Shown here piece by piece: positions 43,193 to 50,309 of a stretch of DNA of 53,803 bases; position 1 is the first letter of the stretch, and the number at the start of each line of letters is the position of its first letter. The notes under the pieces were generated by a model. The model had not been told where the DNA came from and did not search any database. It saw nothing but the letters and a program-made list of their open reading frames with translations. Where the stretch lies: the IMG/VR virus record IMGVR_UViG_3300012921_000077, positions 1 to 53,803 of that record; one strand, 5' to 3'. The stretch comes from a virus (Duplodnaviria; Caudoviricetes). The position numbers and the translations under genes were made by a program.

Positions 43193-43822
43193 GTGAAGGG
43201 CGAGCAGTTGGAACTCGAAGAATTAGCGCGTGAGGTGCGCCGTCGCGCCGGGCTGTCCGATGACGACGTCGAGCTCGCCACCCGCATCGCCGCGCGCGTG
43301 CTCGGGCCCGACGCCATCGCGCTCGACACGACGATGCGCGGCGCGGCGTACCTCCGCCGGACCATCGACGGATGGCAGATCGTCGTGAACCCGCGCGGGC
43401 GCGACGTCCGCTTCCACGTCGCGCACGAGCTCGGCGAGTGGGCGCTGCGATCGCTCGCGAAGTTCCAGGGCTCCGAGGTCGAGCGCGAGCGCGCGGCGAA
43501 CTACCTGGCGGCGGCGATCTTGGCGCCCGAGCCCGCGGTGCGCCGCGTGCACGCCGCCGTCGGCGAGCGGCTGCCGGTCCTTGCCTCGCAGTTCGGGCTT
43601 TCGCAGACCAGCGTGGTGCTGCGGCTTGCCGAGGTGCACGGCGACGAGCGCGCCGTCGTGACCGCGAGCGGGAACGTGCTCCTGCGGACGCAGGGCGCCT
43701 TTCCGTGGATGAACGTCCCCGTCGTCGACGTCGCGCGCGGCGCGGCTCGGTGGGTCGGGCTCGCGAAGGCGCAGCTCCGCGGCGGCATCGACGAAGGCCG
43801 CGTCGCGCTCCGCGTCCGCTAG
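43193..43822 (+). CDS. ImmA/IrrE-family metallopeptidase-like protein with a variant HExxE motif
   Basis: IVVN...RFHVAHELGEW...ERAANYLAAAILAP...LASQFGLSQTSVVLRL. Confidence 0.82.
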   Translation: MKGEQLELEELAREVRRRAGLSDDDVELATRIAARVLGPDAIALDTTMRGAAYLRRTIDGWQIVVNPRGRDVRFHVAHELGEWALRSLAKFQGSEVERERAANYLAAAILAPEPAVRRVHAAVGERLPVLASQFGLSQTSVVLRLAEVHGDERAVVTASGNVLLRTQGAFPWMNVPVVDVARGAARWVGLAKAQLRGGIDEGRVALRVR

Positions 43823-44211
43823 GGGTCGCAGCGCGCGAGCTTCCGCGGCCCTTCCTTGCAGTGGTCCGGCCAGTCGCGGCAGTACGTCTCGTAATACGAC
43901 AGGTTCTCGGCGCAGAACTTCGCGTCGTAGTTCGACGACGACCGGCTGTAGCTGTTGCACGCGTACCACCAGCCGAAGGCGAGCGTGCCGACGATCGCGA
44001 GCAGCGCGAGCTGCGCGCCTCGCCGCTGCTTCGCCGCCCGGGCGTCTGGCGGTAGGATCGACGCGAACGGCGACGCGGCGACGGGCATCCACGCGCCGCC
44101 GTGCTCGTCGCGGACGCTCGCGTCGCGCATGCCGCCGCGTACCCACTCGGCGACTTCGTGCTCCTCGACCGGGCCGACGGTCTCGCCGTTGCGGCTCACG
44201 TACCAGCGCAT
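43819..44211 (-). CDS. GYF_2/DUF4339 domain single-pass membrane protein
   Basis: WYVSRNGETVGP...W.PV motif; TM LALLAIVGTLAFGWWY; Cys-rich C-terminus. Confidence 0.78.
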   Translation of the reverse strand: MRWYVSRNGETVGPVEEHEVAEWVRGGMRDASVRDEHGGAWMPVAASPFASILPPDARAAKQRRGAQLALLAIVGTLAFGWWYACNSYSRSSSNYDAKFCAENLSYYETYCRDWPDHCKEGPRKLARCDP

Positions 44212-44290
44212 GGGGAGCGATCGTACCGCGCCCACGACCGGCGACATGCCCCCGCAGGAGAATGCCTAACTATGCGGAATGTCGTTTTCT

Positions 44291-44342
44291 GCTAGCCGTA
44301 GCTAACAATTCCTTTGCGCTGGTCGCTATCACTAGCTAGAGA
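44291..44342 (+). promoter_or_regulatory. Early rightward promoter with two operators
   Basis: GCTAGCCGTAGC 44291-44302; GCTATCACTAGCTAG 44325-44339, identical to 42471-42485; TTGCGC-17-TAGAGA; GGAGG RBS follows. Confidence 0.72.
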
Positions 44343-44363
44343 TTGGGTAACGGAGGCGGCGCG

Positions 44364-44600
44364 ATGGTGAACGACGACGCGACGGTGGACGAGATCCTCG
44401 AAGGCTTCCTGGCGACCGACCTGGAGCTCGCTGCGTGCGACCTCTTCGGCGTGCAGCTGCCGGCCCCGGGCCGGTGCCCGTCGCTCGACGACGTCGCGAA
44501 GCTCGACGCGTACGCGATGCACGTCGCCTCGATCCTGGAGGCACGCATCGCGCGGCAGACCGCCGACACCGTTCCGCCGCCGGCGCGGAGGGCAGCGTGA
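44364..44600 (+). CDS. Hypothetical early protein
   Basis: GGAGG RBS; first gene after the operator-bearing promoter. Confidence 0.65.
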   Translation: MVNDDATVDEILEGFLATDLELAACDLFGVQLPAPGRCPSLDDVAKLDAYAMHVASILEARIARQTADTVPPPARRAA

Positions 44601-44812
44601 ACTGCCCCTGCGGACGCCCGGCGTCGGACGACCACTCCGACTGTGACTGGCTCTTCGGCGAGCAGATCAAGCTCGCGGCCCGCGACTACGCGCCCGTGGA
44701 CCGGGCCCCGTCGCTCTGGGACGCGCACGACGACCGCGCCGACTTCGCTGAGGAGTACGCGCGCGACGCAGACAACGACCGCGACGACGACTGCGAGGAG
44801 GCCGCCGAATGA
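44597..44812 (+). CDS. Small acidic Cys/His protein
   Basis: MNCPCG...H.DC; GTGA overlap; RBS. Confidence 0.6.
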   Translation: MNCPCGRPASDDHSDCDWLFGEQIKLAARDYAPVDRAPSLWDAHDDRADFAEEYARDADNDRDDDCEEAAE

Positions 44813-45024
44813 TGACCGCAGCTGAGATGAGCGCGCCGACGATTCCGGCGCCGCCGCCCGGGCCGATCGTGAAGGAGTGCCTCTGCGGCGCCACCTACAC
44901 GCAGGAGGAATGGGACGAGCTCCGCTACGTCGGCGACATGTCCGACAGCGAAGGCGGCGTCCTCGAGCTTCGCGACTGCCGCCCGCCGTGCCCGTCGACG
45001 CTCGCCATCAGGGTGTCGCGGTGA
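44809..45024 (+). CDS. Small zinc-ribbon protein
   Basis: CLCG...LELRDC...CPSTLA; RBS; overlaps. Confidence 0.62.
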   Translation: MMTAAEMSAPTIPAPPPGPIVKECLCGATYTQEEWDELRYVGDMSDSEGGVLELRDCRPPCPSTLAIRVSR

Positions 45025-45269
45025 ACTGCGCGGCCTGCGAGGGAGACGGGGAGGTGGGCGCCGCCGAGCGCGCCGGCGAGTACGCGTGGTGCATCGCGTG
45101 CCGCGGCACCGGCCTGCAAGACCACGCCTGCGAGGGATGCGGCGAACCGACGACGCTGAGCACCATCGACCGCGCAGCCCTCGCTTGCGTCGGGATCGTC
45201 ATCCACGCGGATTGCGACACCGGCCATTCGTTCTTCGAGCACCGGCCGACTCCGGTTCTCTGGGTGTGA
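45021..45269 (+). CDS. Small DnaJ-type zinc-finger protein
   Basis: CAACEGDG and CIACRGTG repeats, plus CEGC. Confidence 0.62.
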   Translation: MNCAACEGDGEVGAAERAGEYAWCIACRGTGLQDHACEGCGEPTTLSTIDRAALACVGIVIHADCDTGHSFFEHRPTPVLWV

Positions 45270-45296
45270 GACGCGATGCCCTCAAGAGGTAAAGCC

Positions 45297-45572
45297 ATGG
45301 ATCGACTGGAGATGATCGCGCGCGACCTTCGCGCTGCAGCCGAACATCTGAGCACGGCTCCTCCCGGCGACTACTCGGTGCACTACCGCATCGGCGCCGC
45401 CGAGCGGCGCATCCAGAGCGCGCTCGTCGAGGTCGAACGCTTGCAGGCCGAAGCGTCGGTCGTGTCGCTCGCCGGCAACCTTGCCGCGTGCGAGGAGGCC
45501 GACAAGCTCGGCGTCGAGCGCAGCAAGGCCCTCCGCATCGTCGCGCGCGCGTCGCGTCGGAAGAGCGCATGA
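45297..45572 (+). CDS. Hypothetical helical protein
   Basis: GAGGT RBS; ATGA overlap downstream. Confidence 0.6.
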   Translation: MDRLEMIARDLRAAAEHLSTAPPGDYSVHYRIGAAERRIQSALVEVERLQAEASVVSLAGNLAACEEADKLGVERSKALRIVARASRRKSA

Positions 45573-45874
45573 AGCTCGTCACCGCGCCGCCGCGGAACGT
45601 TCGTACGCGCGCCTCGCTCCTCGCGAGCTGGGGCGCGGCGAAGAACATGGCCGACACAAACGGCGCGATCGTGCTGAACCACGCGTCCGCCGCGGGCTTT
45701 CTGATCGAGCAGCACCTCGTCATCGCCATCGCCATCGCGCTCTGCCCGACGGAGCCCTGGTGGGAGACGGTTCGCGAGTACCTGCGGCAGGTCGAGCGCG
45801 AAGAGAAGGCCGCCGAGCTCGACGAGTTCGCGGCCGCCTCGCGCGAGCTTCCCGACTTCTCCGGAGGGGAGTGA
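45569..45874 (+). CDS. Hypothetical protein
   Basis: Coupled ORF MKLVTAPPRN... Confidence 0.6.
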   Translation: MKLVTAPPRNVRTRASLLASWGAAKNMADTNGAIVLNHASAAGFLIEQHLVIAIAIALCPTEPWWETVREYLRQVEREEKAAELDEFAAASRELPDFSGGE

Positions 45875-46047
45875 TGGCGCGGAAGAGGAAGCGGCCCGTG
45901 CCGAAACGCCTCGTGCTCGAGTCGATCGACGCCTCGCTGCGTCGGCTCTCGCTGGCGCTCGCGTGGGATGCGCTCACTGCTCAGGAGCGCATCGAATTCC
46001 GCGATCGCGCGATGCGCATGATCCACACCATGCGGGAGATCTCGTGA
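45874..46047 (+). CDS. Small basic protein
   Basis: MARKRKRPVPKRL...; GGAGG RBS; TGATG overlaps on both sides. Confidence 0.6.
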   Translation: MARKRKRPVPKRLVLESIDASLRRLSLALAWDALTAQERIEFRDRAMRMIHTMREIS

Positions 46048-47303
46048 TGCTCCCCGGCGCGTGCCTCGTCATCGAGCACAAGACGGCGAGCACCGACGTC
46101 GAGGACGGCTCGCCGTACTGGAAGCGGCTCCGCCTCGATTCGCAGGTGTCGAACTACTACGACGGCGCTCGCGCGCTCGGCATGCCGCCCGACGGCGTGC
46201 TCTACGACGTCATCCGGAAGCCGCGCATCAAGCCGCTGAAGGCGACGCCGGTCGAAGCGCGAAAGTACACGAAGCCGAAGAGCCGCGTGTGCGCCGCGTG
46301 CAAGAAGAAGGGCGGGGCGGCGAGCGCACCGCACGAAGTCGAGATCGTCGACGACGAAGACGGCGACGGCTCGGCGCGCATTATCCGCTGCGAAGGCGGG
46401 CGGCTCGTCACCGACCCGGGCGGCCGGCTCTACGCCGATCAGCGCGAGCACGACGAGACGCTCGACGAGTACCGCGTCCGGCTCCGCGCCGACATCGAGG
46501 CAAACGTCGACAGCTACTTCAAGCGCGGCATCGTCGTGCGCTCCGCCGACGAGGAGCGGGAGGCCGCGCTCGATCGGTGGATGATCGCCGAGCGCATCGC
46601 GTCTGCCCAGCTGCGCAGCCGATGGCCGCGGAACGTCGACGCATGCGAGCGCTACGGGCGCTTCTGCGACTTCTTCCCGGTGTGCACGGGCGAGGCACGC
46701 GTCGACGACCCGACGCGCTACCGGCGCGCGACCTCACCCCACGAGGAGCTCGACGCCGCCACGAAGCACCGGCTCCCGCTCGTCACGACGAGCGGCATGA
46801 AAGCGTTCAACCGGTGCGCGCGCGAGTACTTCTTCTCGTACGAGCTCGGGTACCGCTCGATCGAGCGCGCCGAGTCTCTGGCGTTCGGCACGCTCGTGCA
46901 CGTCGGCCTCGAAGTGTGGTGGACGACGGTCGATCTCGACGCCGTCTTCGCTGCGATGCGCGCGAGCAAGGACGCCGACCCGCTGCGGCTCGTGCAGGCC
47001 GAGGAACTGATGCGCGCGTACCACGCGCGCTGGTGCGAAGAGGCCTTCGACGTGCTCGCGGTCGAGCGCGAGTTTGTCTCGCCGCTCGTCGACCCGCTGA
47101 CTGGCGCGACGTCGAAGGCGTTCGCGCTCGGCGGAAAGATCGACGCGATCGCGCGCGTCGGCCAGCCCAAAGGATGTGAGGTGAAGGATGAACACGTCAA
47201 CGATCGTCAAGAACTCTGTACCGATACCGACGCCCGCACCGACGCAGCAGCCGACGCCGGCCGCCGCGCCGCCTCGGCGGATGTCGCTCAAGAACACGCG
47301 TAA
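46047..47303 (+). CDS. PD-(D/E)XK (Cas4/AddB/RecB-like) exonuclease, apparently circularly permuted
   Basis: EHKT and QVSNY at the N-terminus, C..C..C cluster central, S...F.RC / FGTLVH / VEREF / GKID in the C-terminal half; upstream of the Sak4-like and SSB genes. Confidence 0.85.
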   Translation: MLPGACLVIEHKTASTDVEDGSPYWKRLRLDSQVSNYYDGARALGMPPDGVLYDVIRKPRIKPLKATPVEARKYTKPKSRVCAACKKKGGAASAPHEVEIVDDEDGDGSARIIRCEGGRLVTDPGGRLYADQREHDETLDEYRVRLRADIEANVDSYFKRGIVVRSADEEREAALDRWMIAERIASAQLRSRWPRNVDACERYGRFCDFFPVCTGEARVDDPTRYRRATSPHEELDAATKHRLPLVTTSGMKAFNRCAREYFFSYELGYRSIERAESLAFGTLVHVGLEVWWTTVDLDAVFAAMRASKDADPLRLVQAEELMRAYHARWCEEAFDVLAVEREFVSPLVDPLTGATSKAFALGGKIDAIARVGQPKGCEVKDEHVNDRQELCTDTDARTDAAADAGRRAASADVAQEHA

Positions 47304-48195
47304 CGGCGTCCTCGATTCGCCGCTGCGCATCCTGATCTACGGCGGCGAGAAGGTCGGCAAGTCGTCCTTCGCCTCCGGCGCGCCGAGCCCGCTCTGGCTC
47401 GGCGCCGACGCGGGCACCGACCATCTCAACATCCGACGCATGCCGCAGCCGGAGTCGTTTCGCGAGGTCCTCGAAGGCATCGCGGAGGTCACCGCGAACG
47501 GCAAGGCCGAAGGCATCGAGACGCTCGTGCTCGACCCGCTGAACTGGTTCGAGGCGCTCGTCGTCGCTGACGTCGTGGGCGACAGCGGCAAAAGCCTCGC
47601 GGAGTGGGGCGGCGGCTACGGCCGCGGCGCGTCCGCCGCGCTCGACCGCTGGCGGCAGATCAAGAACGCGCTCGAGGCGGCGTGGCACGCCGGGCTGAAC
47701 GTCATCTTGTGCGCGCACTCGCACGTGAAGAAGTTCGAGGACCCCGAGGGCCCCGGATACGAGCGCTACGAGCTCGCGATGAACCGCGAGGCGGCGGGGC
47801 TCTTCAAGCAGTGGGTCGACGCGATCTTGTTCGCGCGCCCCGACACGTTCGGGAAGGTCGACCCGACGACGAAGAAGATCAAGGCGTACGGCTCGTCGAC
47901 GCGGATGCTCTACACGGAGCTTCACCCCGCGTACGACGCGGGAAACCGCTGGCGTCTTCCCGCCGAGCTGCCGCTGTCGTGGCAGGCGTTCATCGAAGCG
48001 AAGACGCAGGGTCAGAAGCAGATCGCGTCGCTGCACGTGCAGATCGACGAGGGGCTCCGCGAGCTGGGTGACGCCGAGGTCGAGCGCAAGGTGCGCGCGA
48101 TGCTCGCGGACCCGAACGTGGACGTCGCCGCGGTGGCGGAAGCCGTCGCCGAGAAGCTCGCCGCGCAAGCGAAGAGTGTTGGAAAGGAAGGATGA
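47188..48195 (+). CDS. AAA_24/Sak4-like ssDNA-annealing ATPase
   Basis: ILIYGGEKVGKSSFA, TLVLD, GGYGRG, VILCAHS, WVDAILFA, AYDAGNR. Confidence 0.9.
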   Translation: MNTSTIVKNSVPIPTPAPTQQPTPAAAPPRRMSLKNTRNGVLDSPLRILIYGGEKVGKSSFASGAPSPLWLGADAGTDHLNIRRMPQPESFREVLEGIAEVTANGKAEGIETLVLDPLNWFEALVVADVVGDSGKSLAEWGGGYGRGASAALDRWRQIKNALEAAWHAGLNVILCAHSHVKKFEDPEGPGYERYELAMNREAAGLFKQWVDAILFARPDTFGKVDPTTKKIKAYGSSTRMLYTELHPAYDAGNRWRLPAELPLSWQAFIEAKTQGQKQIASLHVQIDEGLRELGDAEVERKVRAMLADPNVDVAAVAEAVAEKLAAQAKSVGKEG

Positions 48196-48199
48196 ATCA

Positions 48200-48673
48200 A
48201 TGAGCAATCGTATCGAAGAAGGCGTTTACAAGGGTCGCGGCATCGAAGGTTCGGCGCAGCAAGGCGTCACCTCGAACGGCACGGAGCAGGTCGCGCTCGA
48301 CATCGAGATCCCCGCGCTCGGTCGCGCGGTGACGACGTTCCTGTACTTCAGCGACAACGCGGCGCCGTACTCGCTCGAGCGCCTGCGTGCGCTCGGCTGG
48401 GAGGGCGGCGACGATCCGTCGTTCCCCGGCATCTCGAAGAACGAGGTCGACGTCTCGATCAAGTACGAGAACTACCAGGGCGAGGACAAGCTGAAGGTCG
48501 AGATCGTGACCGGCGGCGGCCGCGTCGTGCTCAAGACGCCGATGAGCGACCAGCAGCGGCGCGGCTTCATGGCCCGCCTCGCGAAGCTCGAGAAGCAGAG
48601 CGGTGTTCCCGCAGGGGCGCGGCCCGCCGGTAACGGCGAAGCCGCGCGCGCGGGCGGGAAGATCGCTCTCTGA
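48200..48673 (+). CDS. Putative ssDNA-binding protein (DUF669-like OB fold)
   Basis: EGVYKGR...SNGTEQV...LRALGW...ENYQGE; follows the Sak4-like gene. Confidence 0.72.
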   Translation: MSNRIEEGVYKGRGIEGSAQQGVTSNGTEQVALDIEIPALGRAVTTFLYFSDNAAPYSLERLRALGWEGGDDPSFPGISKNEVDVSIKYENYQGEDKLKVEIVTGGGRVVLKTPMSDQQRRGFMARLAKLEKQSGVPAGARPAGNGEAARAGGKIAL

Positions 48674-48681
48674 GGTCCGCC

Positions 48682-49347
48682 ATGCGTAGCGTGCTGATTC
48701 TCGACACCGAAGCGACGGGAACCGAACGCGACGCACGCGTCGTCGAGGTCGGCGTCGTGCTCTGGTCGGTGCAGCACGCTACGCGGATCGCGGCGTACTC
48801 GTCGCTCGTCGACGGCGCGACGAACCCTGCGAAGCACGTCAACGGCATCCCCGAAGCCGCGCTCGCGGACGGCGCCGACGAGGCCGCCGTCTGGGAGCGG
48901 CTTCGGCCTTGGGTCGCGCGCTCCGACGCGATCGTCGCGCATGGGTGCGAGTTCGATCGGAAGTTCACGCCGCCCGCCTGGGACCAGGGGCGGCCGTGGA
49001 TCTGCTCGATGGATGACATCGCGTGGCCGCTGTCGACGAAGCGGAAGCTCGTCGAGCTCTGCCTCGATCACGGGCTCGGCGTCGCGCGAGCGCATCGCGC
49101 GCTCACCGACTGCGAGCTCGTCGAGCGGATGCTCGAGCGCTGCCACGAGCTGGGACACGACGTCGAGGACATGCTCCGCCAGGCGGCGCGGCCGAAGGGC
49201 CTGTTCCGCGCGTGCGTCAGCTACGAGCAGCGGGAGCTCGCGAAGGCGAGCGGATTCCGCTGGAACGATGTGCTGAAGCGGTGGGAGCGCCGCCTGTTCG
49301 AGGAAGACGCGAACGCGTTCTCTTTCCGCGTCGAGAGGGTCGGATGA
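48682..49347 (+). CDS. DEDDh 3'-5' exonuclease (DnaQ-like)
   Basis: LDTEATG, VAHGCEFD, AHRALTD; C-terminal VSYEQRELAKASGFRWN...W. Confidence 0.92.
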   Translation: MRSVLILDTEATGTERDARVVEVGVVLWSVQHATRIAAYSSLVDGATNPAKHVNGIPEAALADGADEAAVWERLRPWVARSDAIVAHGCEFDRKFTPPAWDQGRPWICSMDDIAWPLSTKRKLVELCLDHGLGVARAHRALTDCELVERMLERCHELGHDVEDMLRQAARPKGLFRACVSYEQRELAKASGFRWNDVLKRWERRLFEEDANAFSFRVERVG

Positions 49348-49684: not shown

Positions 49685-49899
49685 ACCGCGCGCGCATCGC
49701 CGAGATCCACCGCGAGCTCGCGCGGCTTCACGAGGAGCTCGCCGAGGAGCTAGCGGACGACGCGCCGGCGGAGCGCGAGGAGCGGCCGGCGAAGCGAACG
49801 CCTCGCGCGCGGTCGTTCCCTGCGCCGCTCGGGAAGGCCACGGACATCGACCGCGCGCGCGCGAGTCGGATGCTGAAGCGAAGGGGATACGCGACGTGA
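49681..49899 (+). CDS. Hypothetical coiled/basic protein
   Basis: GTGA overlaps at both ends. Confidence 0.55.
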   Translation: MNRARIAEIHRELARLHEELAEELADDAPAEREERPAKRTPRARSFPAPLGKATDIDRARASRMLKRRGYAT

Positions 49900-50309
49900 A
49901 CCCGGGAGGAGCGATGGTTGCAATGAAGCTGGTGGTCGTCGAGAGCCCGTATGCCGGCGACGTGGCCGCGAACGTGGACTACGCGCGACGTGCGATGAAG
50001 GATTGTCTGCAGCGTGGCGAGTCGCCGTACGCGTCGCATCTGCTCTACACGCAGCCCGACGTCCTCGACGACACGGTGCCGGGCGAACGAATGGCAGGCA
50101 TCAACGCGGGCTTCGCTTGGGGCGCGAAAGCCGACCTCGTCGCGGTCTATGTCGACCGCGGAATCTCGCGCGGCATGGAGCAAGGGATCGCTCGCGCGCT
50201 CGCCGCGAACCAGCCGGTGGAGTTCCGGTCGCTGGAAGGCGCGGACCTGGCTGCGTATCCGGCGCTCGCGAAGCCGAATGAAGCTCAAGACACGAAGGAT
50301 ACCGAATAA
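49896..50309 (+). CDS. Nucleoside deoxyribosyltransferase-fold phage protein (start may be 49914 or 49923)
   Basis: VVVESPYAGDV..NV.YAR...GESPYASHLLYTQ...GISRGM motif. Confidence 0.75.
   Translation: MNPGGAMVAMKLVVVESPYAGDVAANVDYARRAMKDCLQRGESPYASHLLYTQPDVLDDTVPGERMAGINAGFAWGAKADLVAVYVDRGISRGMEQGIARALAANQPVEFRSLEGADLAAYPALAKPNEAQDTKDTE

Follow-up and report, generated by a model that had tools for sequence, protein, structure and literature searches.

A phage Cas4/AddB-like exonuclease that is very probably a functional, naturally circularly permuted nuclease

Can a nuclease whose polypeptide is opened between its two catalytic strands still be a working enzyme? The question is raised by a gene in IMG/VR record IMGVR_UViG_3300012921_000077, a provirus record (Duplodnaviria; Caudoviricetes) whose whole length of 53,803 nucleotides (nt) is here called the window and whose completeness is estimated at 86%. 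The encoded protein, P0001, is certainly homologous to the Cas4/AddB-type family, and very probably it is a working enzyme of the 4Fe-4S-binding Cas4/AddB/RecB-type PD-(D/E)XK nucleases whose chain has been circularly permuted in nature. Proteins that have the window's order of motifs are called type 1 and those with another rotation type 2. Positions in canonical proteins refer to alignment A2 of 100 canonical-order relatives, which also serves as the canonical profile. The gene and its elements are listed below, with predicted local distance difference test (pLDDT) values taken from the AlphaFold2 model.

46047–47303, plus strand: circularly permuted Cas4/AddB-like PD-(D/E)XK exonuclease gene (P0001), 418 amino acids; the conserved part is residues 1–372
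46065–46085, plus strand: N-terminal β-strand LVIEHKT (residues 7–13; strand 6–14 in the model) with motif III (E10, H11, K12); EHKT occupies 46074–46085
46143–46157, plus strand: QxxxY motif, here QVSNY (Q33, Y37), invariant in the type-1 alignment
46287–46388, plus strand: optional Cys-x2-Cys...His...Cys insert (C81, C84, H95, C114), read from the sequence; small β-elements, pLDDT 85–89
46644–46685, plus strand: C200-x6-C207-x5-C213, three of the four predicted Fe-S ligand cysteines, invariant; C-terminal in canonical proteins (C329/C336/C342 of A2)
46740–46784, plus strand: linker HEELDAATKHRLPL (HEEL..KHRLPL, residues 232–246), a canonical C-tail (HEEL) fused to a canonical N-leader (RRLP)
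46815–46817, plus strand: C257 (in TTSGMKAFNRC), the fourth predicted Fe-S ligand cysteine, invariant; N-terminal in canonical proteins (C27 of A2)
46884–46901, plus strand: FGTLVH helix (G281, H285), invariant
47061–47075, plus strand: VEREF strand (E340), invariant; strand 334–348 in the model
47130–47144, plus strand: GGKID, motif II (D366), in the C-terminal β-strand (sequence GGKIDAIARVG; strand 355–371 in the model); G363 and D366 invariant
47163–47303, plus strand: non-conserved 46-residue tail and stop codon, overlapping the Sak4-like gene; no homologue aligns; pLDDT 50–55

The motifs follow one another in the order ExK, QxxxY, CCC, N-terminal Cys, H, E, D, and the colinear canonical order of the family is not found. 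The catalytic set is present (E340, D366, E10, K12, Q33 and Y37), and the four cluster cysteines, from C200 to C257, lie within 58 residues. This order, with its coordinates and the 58-residue span, had been put forward in an earlier sequence-only reading of the same DNA and proved right when the open reading frame (ORF) and its motifs were read again. The same holds for the coupling of the start to an upstream gene: the TGA of a preceding ORF (46045–46047) overlaps the exonuclease ATG at 46047, with GGGAG 8 nt upstream of the start, and that ORF has a coding-type GC content at third codon positions (GC3) of 88%.

The swapped order is borne out by profile comparison. Against the canonical profile, the native protein matches in two pieces, residues 5–241 with profile positions 144–338 (E-value of 1.6e-91) and residues 240–371 with positions 3–140 (E-value of 3.9e-50), and the two pieces abut at residues 240/241, inside the linker. 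Exchange of the halves in silico yields a single match, from residues 3–371 of the rotated protein to profile positions 4–334 (466 bits, E-value of 1.2e-143), comparable to the 489 bits of the canonical relative P0063, which is 57% identical to the window protein over the rotated length. Two swapped pieces that become one full-length piece are the outcome that the sequence-only reading had set as a check with hidden Markov models. The Pfam family PF12705 (PD-(D/E)XK_1) scores 43 bits against a cut-off of 22, with only residues 248–372 matching positions 4–135 of its 247; canonical relatives match the same profile colinearly over positions 2–246. The PHROG family phrog_1218, ‘exonuclease’, also matches the window protein in two stretches (E-value of 2.7e-18).

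Canonical relatives start with ..RRLPxLSNSEM..C and end with ..HEELxxx, so that the window linker amounts to an in-frame fusion of the former C-tail with the former N-leader. The arrangement is best explained by a canonical chain (N-terminal Cys, G..H helix, E strand, GxxD strand, hairpin, (E/D)xK strand, QxxxY helix, C-x6-C-x5-C and HEEL end) whose C-terminus (HEEL) would have been fused to its N-leader (RRLP) and which would have been opened in the hairpin turn that links the GKID strand to the EHK strand. To complete the active site, the strands at the two ends of the polypeptide would then have to dock side by side. The four cluster cysteines, whose AddB/AdnA-type arrangement is named the ‘iron staple’, would become a local 58-residue module, and the fold should stay unchanged.

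That the order is an artefact of assembly or gene calling in the window contig is exceedingly improbable. The gene is one uninterrupted frame, whose core has the codon-position GC content of a coding sequence (GC1/2/3 of 69/48/93), and the same order recurs widely. A word-index search returned 636 relatives. The best 120, a set biased towards the order of the query, comprise 10 canonical proteins and 110 with the window's order, which come from NCBI, ENA, JGI and Logan sources and lie on contigs of up to 117 kilobases (kb). At the DNA level, the analysis covered 86 loci (that of the window, 5 from genomes and 80 of 260 viral loci), and the gene lies in one frame at all of them: 57 are canonical, 24 are type 1 (the window and 23 further loci), three are type 2 and two are cut by a contig end. 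The new N-termini are tidy and tightly trimmed, lying 6–14 residues ahead of (E/D)xK in 114 of 121 type-1 proteins.

When 1.84 billion representatives were searched exhaustively, 2,907 matched at E-values of 1e-3 or below, 695 of them at 1e-30 or below. The best 150 of the 2,907 comprise 117 canonical proteins, two canonical proteins with a Cys-rich N-terminal extension, 13 of type 1, 10 of type 2 and eight partial sequences. Relatives are found in metagenome-assembled genomes of Myxococcota and elsewhere. The search for other permuted homologues, which the sequence-only reading had suggested, produced many of them together with close canonical ones; that reading did not foresee the large family, the further cut sites or the several topology changes described below.

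Conservation bears on whether the permuted protein is real yet no longer a nuclease, with an inactive, structural or regulatory part to play. Across 104 type-1 proteins at 38–72% identity to the window protein, K12, Q33, Y37, G281, H285, E340, G363, D366, C200, C207, C213 and C257 are invariant, and E10 and H11 are at least 90% conserved. The invariant residues map one-to-one to K150, Q171, Y175, G51, H55, E109, G132, D135 and C329/C336/C342/C27 of the 100 canonical proteins. The cut does fall between catalytic motifs II and III, and the window copy carries its 46-residue tail beside a catalytic strand. An inactive protein, however, would not retain D, E, K, Q, Y and H, and the synteny with a Sak4-like gene is the same as for the canonical forms; loss of activity is therefore judged very unlikely. 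From its family and synteny the protein would be expected to be a metal-dependent 5'–3' exonuclease, and its invariant cysteines to bind a 4Fe-4S cluster. The earlier impression that the gene looks functional rather than scrambled agrees with this invariance and with the prevalence of the order among the best 120 relatives.

The AlphaFold2 model of the window protein, calculated with the type-1 alignment, has a pLDDT of 91.4 and a predicted template modelling score of 0.82, with low values in the tail. Its elements are strand 6–14 (EHK), helix 32–43 (QxxxY), strand 50–57, the insert, and helices and strands up to residue 227, followed by helices within 248–329 and strands 334–348 (VEREF) and 355–371 (GKID). 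The model of canonical P0063 (pLDDT of 96.1) has a secondary-structure string that is an exact rotation of the window model's, and its chain passes from the GKLD strand (residues 124–140) through a hairpin into the EHK strand (residues 143–152). The new termini of the window protein fall in a surface loop, the hairpin between the catalytic strands, where they had been placed from the motifs, and the structure prediction proposed at that time returns a confident fold with rotated elements.

Among solved structures, the canonical P0063 model has 23 Foldseek matches at E-values of 0.001 or below, including AdnA/AdnB, ACE1 (Cas4 family), RecE (3h4r), AddA/AddB, SSO0001, MGME1 and Dna2, with E-values of about 1e-6 for AdnAB, ACE1/Cas4, RecE and AddAB. 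By sequence, the canonical profile reaches AdnA (E-value of 3e-5) and SSO0001 (4ic1; E-value of 9e-5), and no match to a solved structure was found with the permuted profile. The halves of the window model match solved nucleases in swapped order, at weak Z-scores. In VIA-align, residues 240–372 match ACE1 2–154 (Z-score of 4.0) and 186–373 match AdnA 785–927 (Z-score of 4.5), and residues 1–215 match Cas4 90–204 (Z-score of 3.2) and 1–216 match the exonuclease 3l0a 111–253 (Z-score of 3.1). As judged from the models, it is strongly suggested that the window protein shares the canonical fold, whose core would be the restriction-endonuclease-like α-β-β-β-α-β one.

The family and the neighbouring genes together point to a role. 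The flanking genes are as follows.

45874–46047, plus strand: upstream ORF of 57 codons, GC1/2/3 of 65/47/88; no family match; not kept in other loci
47188–48195, plus strand: Sak4-like ATPase annealing single-stranded DNA (ssDNA); PF13479 (AAA_24), E-value of 2.5e-35; phrog_124 (Sak4-like), E-value of 9e-32
48200–48673, plus strand: protein of 157 amino acids, possibly DUF669-like; protein-atlas lead to DUF669 clusters, feature score 0.94, TM 0.53
48682–49347, plus strand: DnaQ/RNase T-like 3'–5' exonuclease; PF00929, E-value of 4e-7; phrog_192

The Sak4-like gene directly follows the exonuclease in 85 of the 86 loci, and a small protein of the 157-residue type is present in 69, in both cases whatever the topology. 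The gene had been said to keep its usual place before Sak4-like and single-stranded DNA-binding protein (SSB) genes; this stands for the Sak4-like gene, and the supposed SSB, which is the 157-residue protein, has no Pfam match even at an E-value of 10 and no PHROG match. A 2026 paper describes a phage module for the repair of cleaved phage DNA, which lies beside a Cas4-domain exonuclease and consists of a Sak4-like annealase and an ssDNA-binding protein of the DUF669 type (PMC13687109). Judging by its family and by its neighbouring genes, which resemble this Sak4/DUF669 module, the window protein is most likely the 5'–3' exonuclease that resects DNA ends in a phage module for recombination and repair. 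It would hand the resulting ssDNA to the adjacent Sak4-like annealase and to a small, possibly DUF669-like, ssDNA-binding partner. A DUF669 identity of the 157-residue protein would make the window locus a ‘Healer’-type repair module.

Several observations weigh against a functional permuted nuclease in such a module. The window model has no Foldseek match at an E-value of 0.001 or below, its best being AddB at 0.012, and its VIA-align matches reach Z-scores of at most 4.5 over half of the chain, which is no proof of a common fold; weak matches of a permuted model to solved structures are nevertheless expected because the aligners are sequential. The window copy is unusual in having 46 residues directly after the catalytic strand. 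In this tail, GC3 is 63% in the exonuclease frame against 82% in the overlapping Sak4-like frame, and the tail is therefore taken to be an incidental continuation of the exonuclease frame, which reads 116 nt into the Sak4-like gene; in the relative L026 the same two genes overlap by only 4 nt. A search of the tail for an EHK relic gave no significant one. No tandem or partly duplicated intermediate, for which the sequence-only reading had advised a search, was found among the best 150 representatives and the 86 loci. For the small partner, DUF669 is only a lead from the protein atlas.

The hairpin is not the only place at which this family has been opened. Type-2 proteins start ahead of the VE.EF strand, have an intact GKxD–hairpin–EHK unit, the CCC motif and a linker of the HEEL–RRLP type, and end past the FGTLVH helix. 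Their cut sites lie after the first helix (P0136 and P0151), between the second and third helices (P0175 and P0200) and after the third helix (P0218), which gives at least four sites in total with the hairpin included. One type-2 protein belongs to a cultured phage: gp59 of Tunturiibacter phage Tunturi_1 (PP887698.1; L091:2764–3798), annotated only as ‘exonuclease’, is followed by a Sak4-like protein and an SSB. A scan of viral contigs with P0200 gave one locus (L092).

Trees were built on rotated sequences, in which junction residues can bias only toward grouping like with like. The FastTree tree has 228 rows, after 39 were dropped (23 in a near-duplicate block, which wrongly took in P0099, P0101, P0103, P0105, P0108 and P0118, six longer than 500 amino acids and 10 partial or other), and needs eight changes for type 1 and 10 for type 2. 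The quick IQ-TREE tree of 92 rows needs five changes for type 1 and 10 for type 2, of which at least three in each case are forced, for type 1 by branches with a Shimodaira–Hasegawa-like approximate likelihood ratio of 95 or above. Approximately unbiased (AU) tests on a 36-row subset, picked after the first trees had been seen, reject a single type-1 clade (log-likelihood difference of 163, p = 1.4e-49) and a single type-2 clade (difference of 132, p = 1.8e-9).

The scatter of topologies over these trees could also stem from one ancient permutation, after which permuted and canonical alleles in co-infecting phages recombined or underwent gene conversion. Phage genes are mosaic, and the type-1 protein P0093 is 96% identical to canonical P0118 in its EHK..CCC half and 73% identical in the other; from these unequal identities, recombination within the gene also plays a part. 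In the window, the genes from Sak4 to DnaQ are closest to those of L026 (76–78% nt identity), whose own exonuclease is canonical and belongs to the P0063 group, and between L026:4986–8300 and window 46047–49200 the exonuclease halves match in swapped positions at the DNA level, at 70–80% identity. Spread of permuted alleles by recombination may thus be a partial explanation. A single event is countered by the nearest relatives of individual permuted proteins, both halves of P0093, P0200 and P0153 being nearest to a canonical partner and not to any permuted protein. P0093 is 77–78% identical to canonical P0063 and P0076, as against 52–56% to other type-1 proteins, and its two halves are 62% and 62% identical to the nearest type-1 sequences; where P0118 reads GKLDAIVER-EDG-VWIVEHK, P0093 ends with GKLDAIVER and starts with MSVWIVEHK. 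For the type-2 proteins P0200 and P0153, the nearest sequences to both halves are canonical P0132 and P0152. With the four or more different cut sites and the AU tests also speaking against it, one ancient event is unlikely, though it keeps some weight.

On balance, we lean towards this phage exonuclease family being a natural hot spot of permutation, with at least four re-opening sites (the catalytic β2–β3 hairpin, two inter-helix loops and the loop ahead of the first catalytic strand), at least six topology changes, and proteins that are still 55–78% identical to canonical ones. The 4Fe-4S ‘staple’ would hold the native termini together, so that any in-frame tandem duplication would likely be viable and could be trimmed at any permissive loop. 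The duplications could be supplied by phage recombination, and possibly by double-strand breaks from the homing endonuclease of the intein that targets the EHK|T site.

The permuted gene likely arose by such a duplication, in tandem and in frame, with both ends trimmed afterwards. This route is favoured because the linker connects tail and leader in frame and because some N-termini keep relics. In a few long type-1 N-termini (P0072, P0129 and P0222), residues can still be aligned with the turn of the hairpin and with the last part of the strand before it, and these residues are what trimming of an upstream copy would leave. Fission of the gene at the hairpin, with reordering and re-fusion of the parts, would account for the lack of a tandem intermediate, and 11 short relatives (below 229 amino acids), some covering one half only, could be taken for its split forms. 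Most of these lie on contigs of 0.6–4 kb and appear truncated, and no clear two-gene pair is seen among them; since the in-frame linker, the relics of the preceding strand and the retention of the same flanking genes also speak against fission, we consider it improbable. As to duplication with trimming, no fused form above 732 amino acids was scored, which is weak evidence, and a six-frame profile search of window positions 43500–49000 for relics of a lost copy gave only noise (E-values above 1).

In the canonical proteins P0172, P0178, P0220 and P0232, an intein with a LAGLIDADG endonuclease immediately follows the catalytic lysine, at (E/D)HK|T, and a type-2 gene (L088:3671–5998) carries an intein at the same site. 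This site lies about 6–14 residues inside the type-1 N-terminus, not at it, and the permuted gene retains the sequence on either side of it. That intein homing caused cuts of the window's type is a lead that is neither supported nor refuted. In the type-1 protein P0051, the called start lies inside the C-terminal part of such an intein, with no EHK ahead of it.

Proteins of the Cas4 family (SSO0001, 4ic1; Cas4, 7mi4; Argonaute-associated ACE1, 9iab) have in common with the window protein a PD-(D/E)XK core with D...(E/D)xK and QxxxY, and the one N-terminal and three C-terminal Fe-S cysteines of the canonical order; the canonical model matches ACE1 and SSO0001 with Foldseek E-values of 2e-6 and 2e-4. 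In contrast to them, the window protein is rotated, with its termini in the motif II/III hairpin, has about 370 residues with extra helices and the optional Cys/His insert, and sits in a phage recombination context rather than in CRISPR adaptation. The nuclease domains of AddB/AddA and of mycobacterial AdnA/AdnB are the closest matches of the canonical relatives (for AdnA, a Foldseek E-value of 1e-6 and a profile E-value of 3e-5) and share the iron-staple arrangement, whereas the window protein is stand-alone, permuted and not fused to a helicase. Lambda Exo and RecE are 5'–3' resection nucleases paired with the annealing proteins Red-beta and RecT, and the working role of the window protein is likely similar. 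They belong to another branch, which has no Fe-S cluster, forms a toroidal oligomer and is not permuted.

The Sak4/DUF669 ‘Healer’ neighbourhood of Pseudomonas phage Phi47 has a like arrangement of a Cas4-type exonuclease, a Sak4-like AAA protein and a small ssDNA-binding protein; the available part of that text describes no permutation (PMC13687109), and the small partner in the window has only a lead to DUF669. Permutation as such is known in the PD-(D/E)XK superfamily: in the Hef/XPF-type nucleases (1j22), only the first core helix has moved to the C-terminus, between distant families (PMC3424549). That case and the present one belong to the same superfamily and have in common a fold that tolerates a rotated chain. 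Here, unlike there, the cut lies between the catalytic strands or the N-terminal helices, the branch is the Fe-S-bearing Cas4/AddB one, and permuted and canonical forms are up to 77–78% identical. A rotated Cas4/AddB-type nuclease that is opened between its catalytic strands appears to be new. In the full-text literature, with subscription journals and supplements lying outside it, no permuted nuclease of the Cas4/AddB type was found to be described, including the available parts of PMC3424549, PMC3150331 and PMC5567051, and the available text of a Cas4 phylogenomics study has no instance of ‘permut’ (PMC5704561).

The family is a natural experiment in protein topology, in which an enzyme cut between its catalytic strands has been kept in hundreds of phage genomes. 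Folding, Fe-S insertion and activity can be compared directly with those of its closest canonical versions, and the contrast between local and chain-spanning cluster ligands can test whether the termini depend on an iron staple to stay together. Tunturi_1, being cultured, provides an experimental handle for one rotation. For protein engineering, the natural cut sites are useful as pointers to positions at which new termini or insertions may be tolerated in nucleases of the Cas4/AddB/Dna2 type. For annotation, Pfam covers only one third of the protein, the permuted profile reaches no solved structure, and Foldseek falls from 23 matches to none at the same threshold; permuted genes are therefore under-annotated.

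The Cys/His insert is possibly a small zinc-binding module. It spans about 45 residues and occurs or is missing among canonical and permuted relatives alike, with forms of 315–330 amino acids that do without it; its presence and absence in both topologies therefore indicate repeated gain or loss. Downstream of the module, window positions 49896–50309 encode a DUF7768 protein that also matches the PHROG family ‘nucleoside 2-deoxyribosyltransferase’ and that recurs near the module in L034, L037, L055 and L076. Four canonical relatives (P0140, P0257, P0143 and P0259) have long N-terminal extensions, two of them Cys-rich (one CxxCxGxG-like) and two of low complexity over 260–330 amino acids. On a domain map, P0143 and P0259 had appeared to carry a partial duplication of the CCC region, and their sequences show unrelated Cys-rich N-terminal extensions on canonical proteins.

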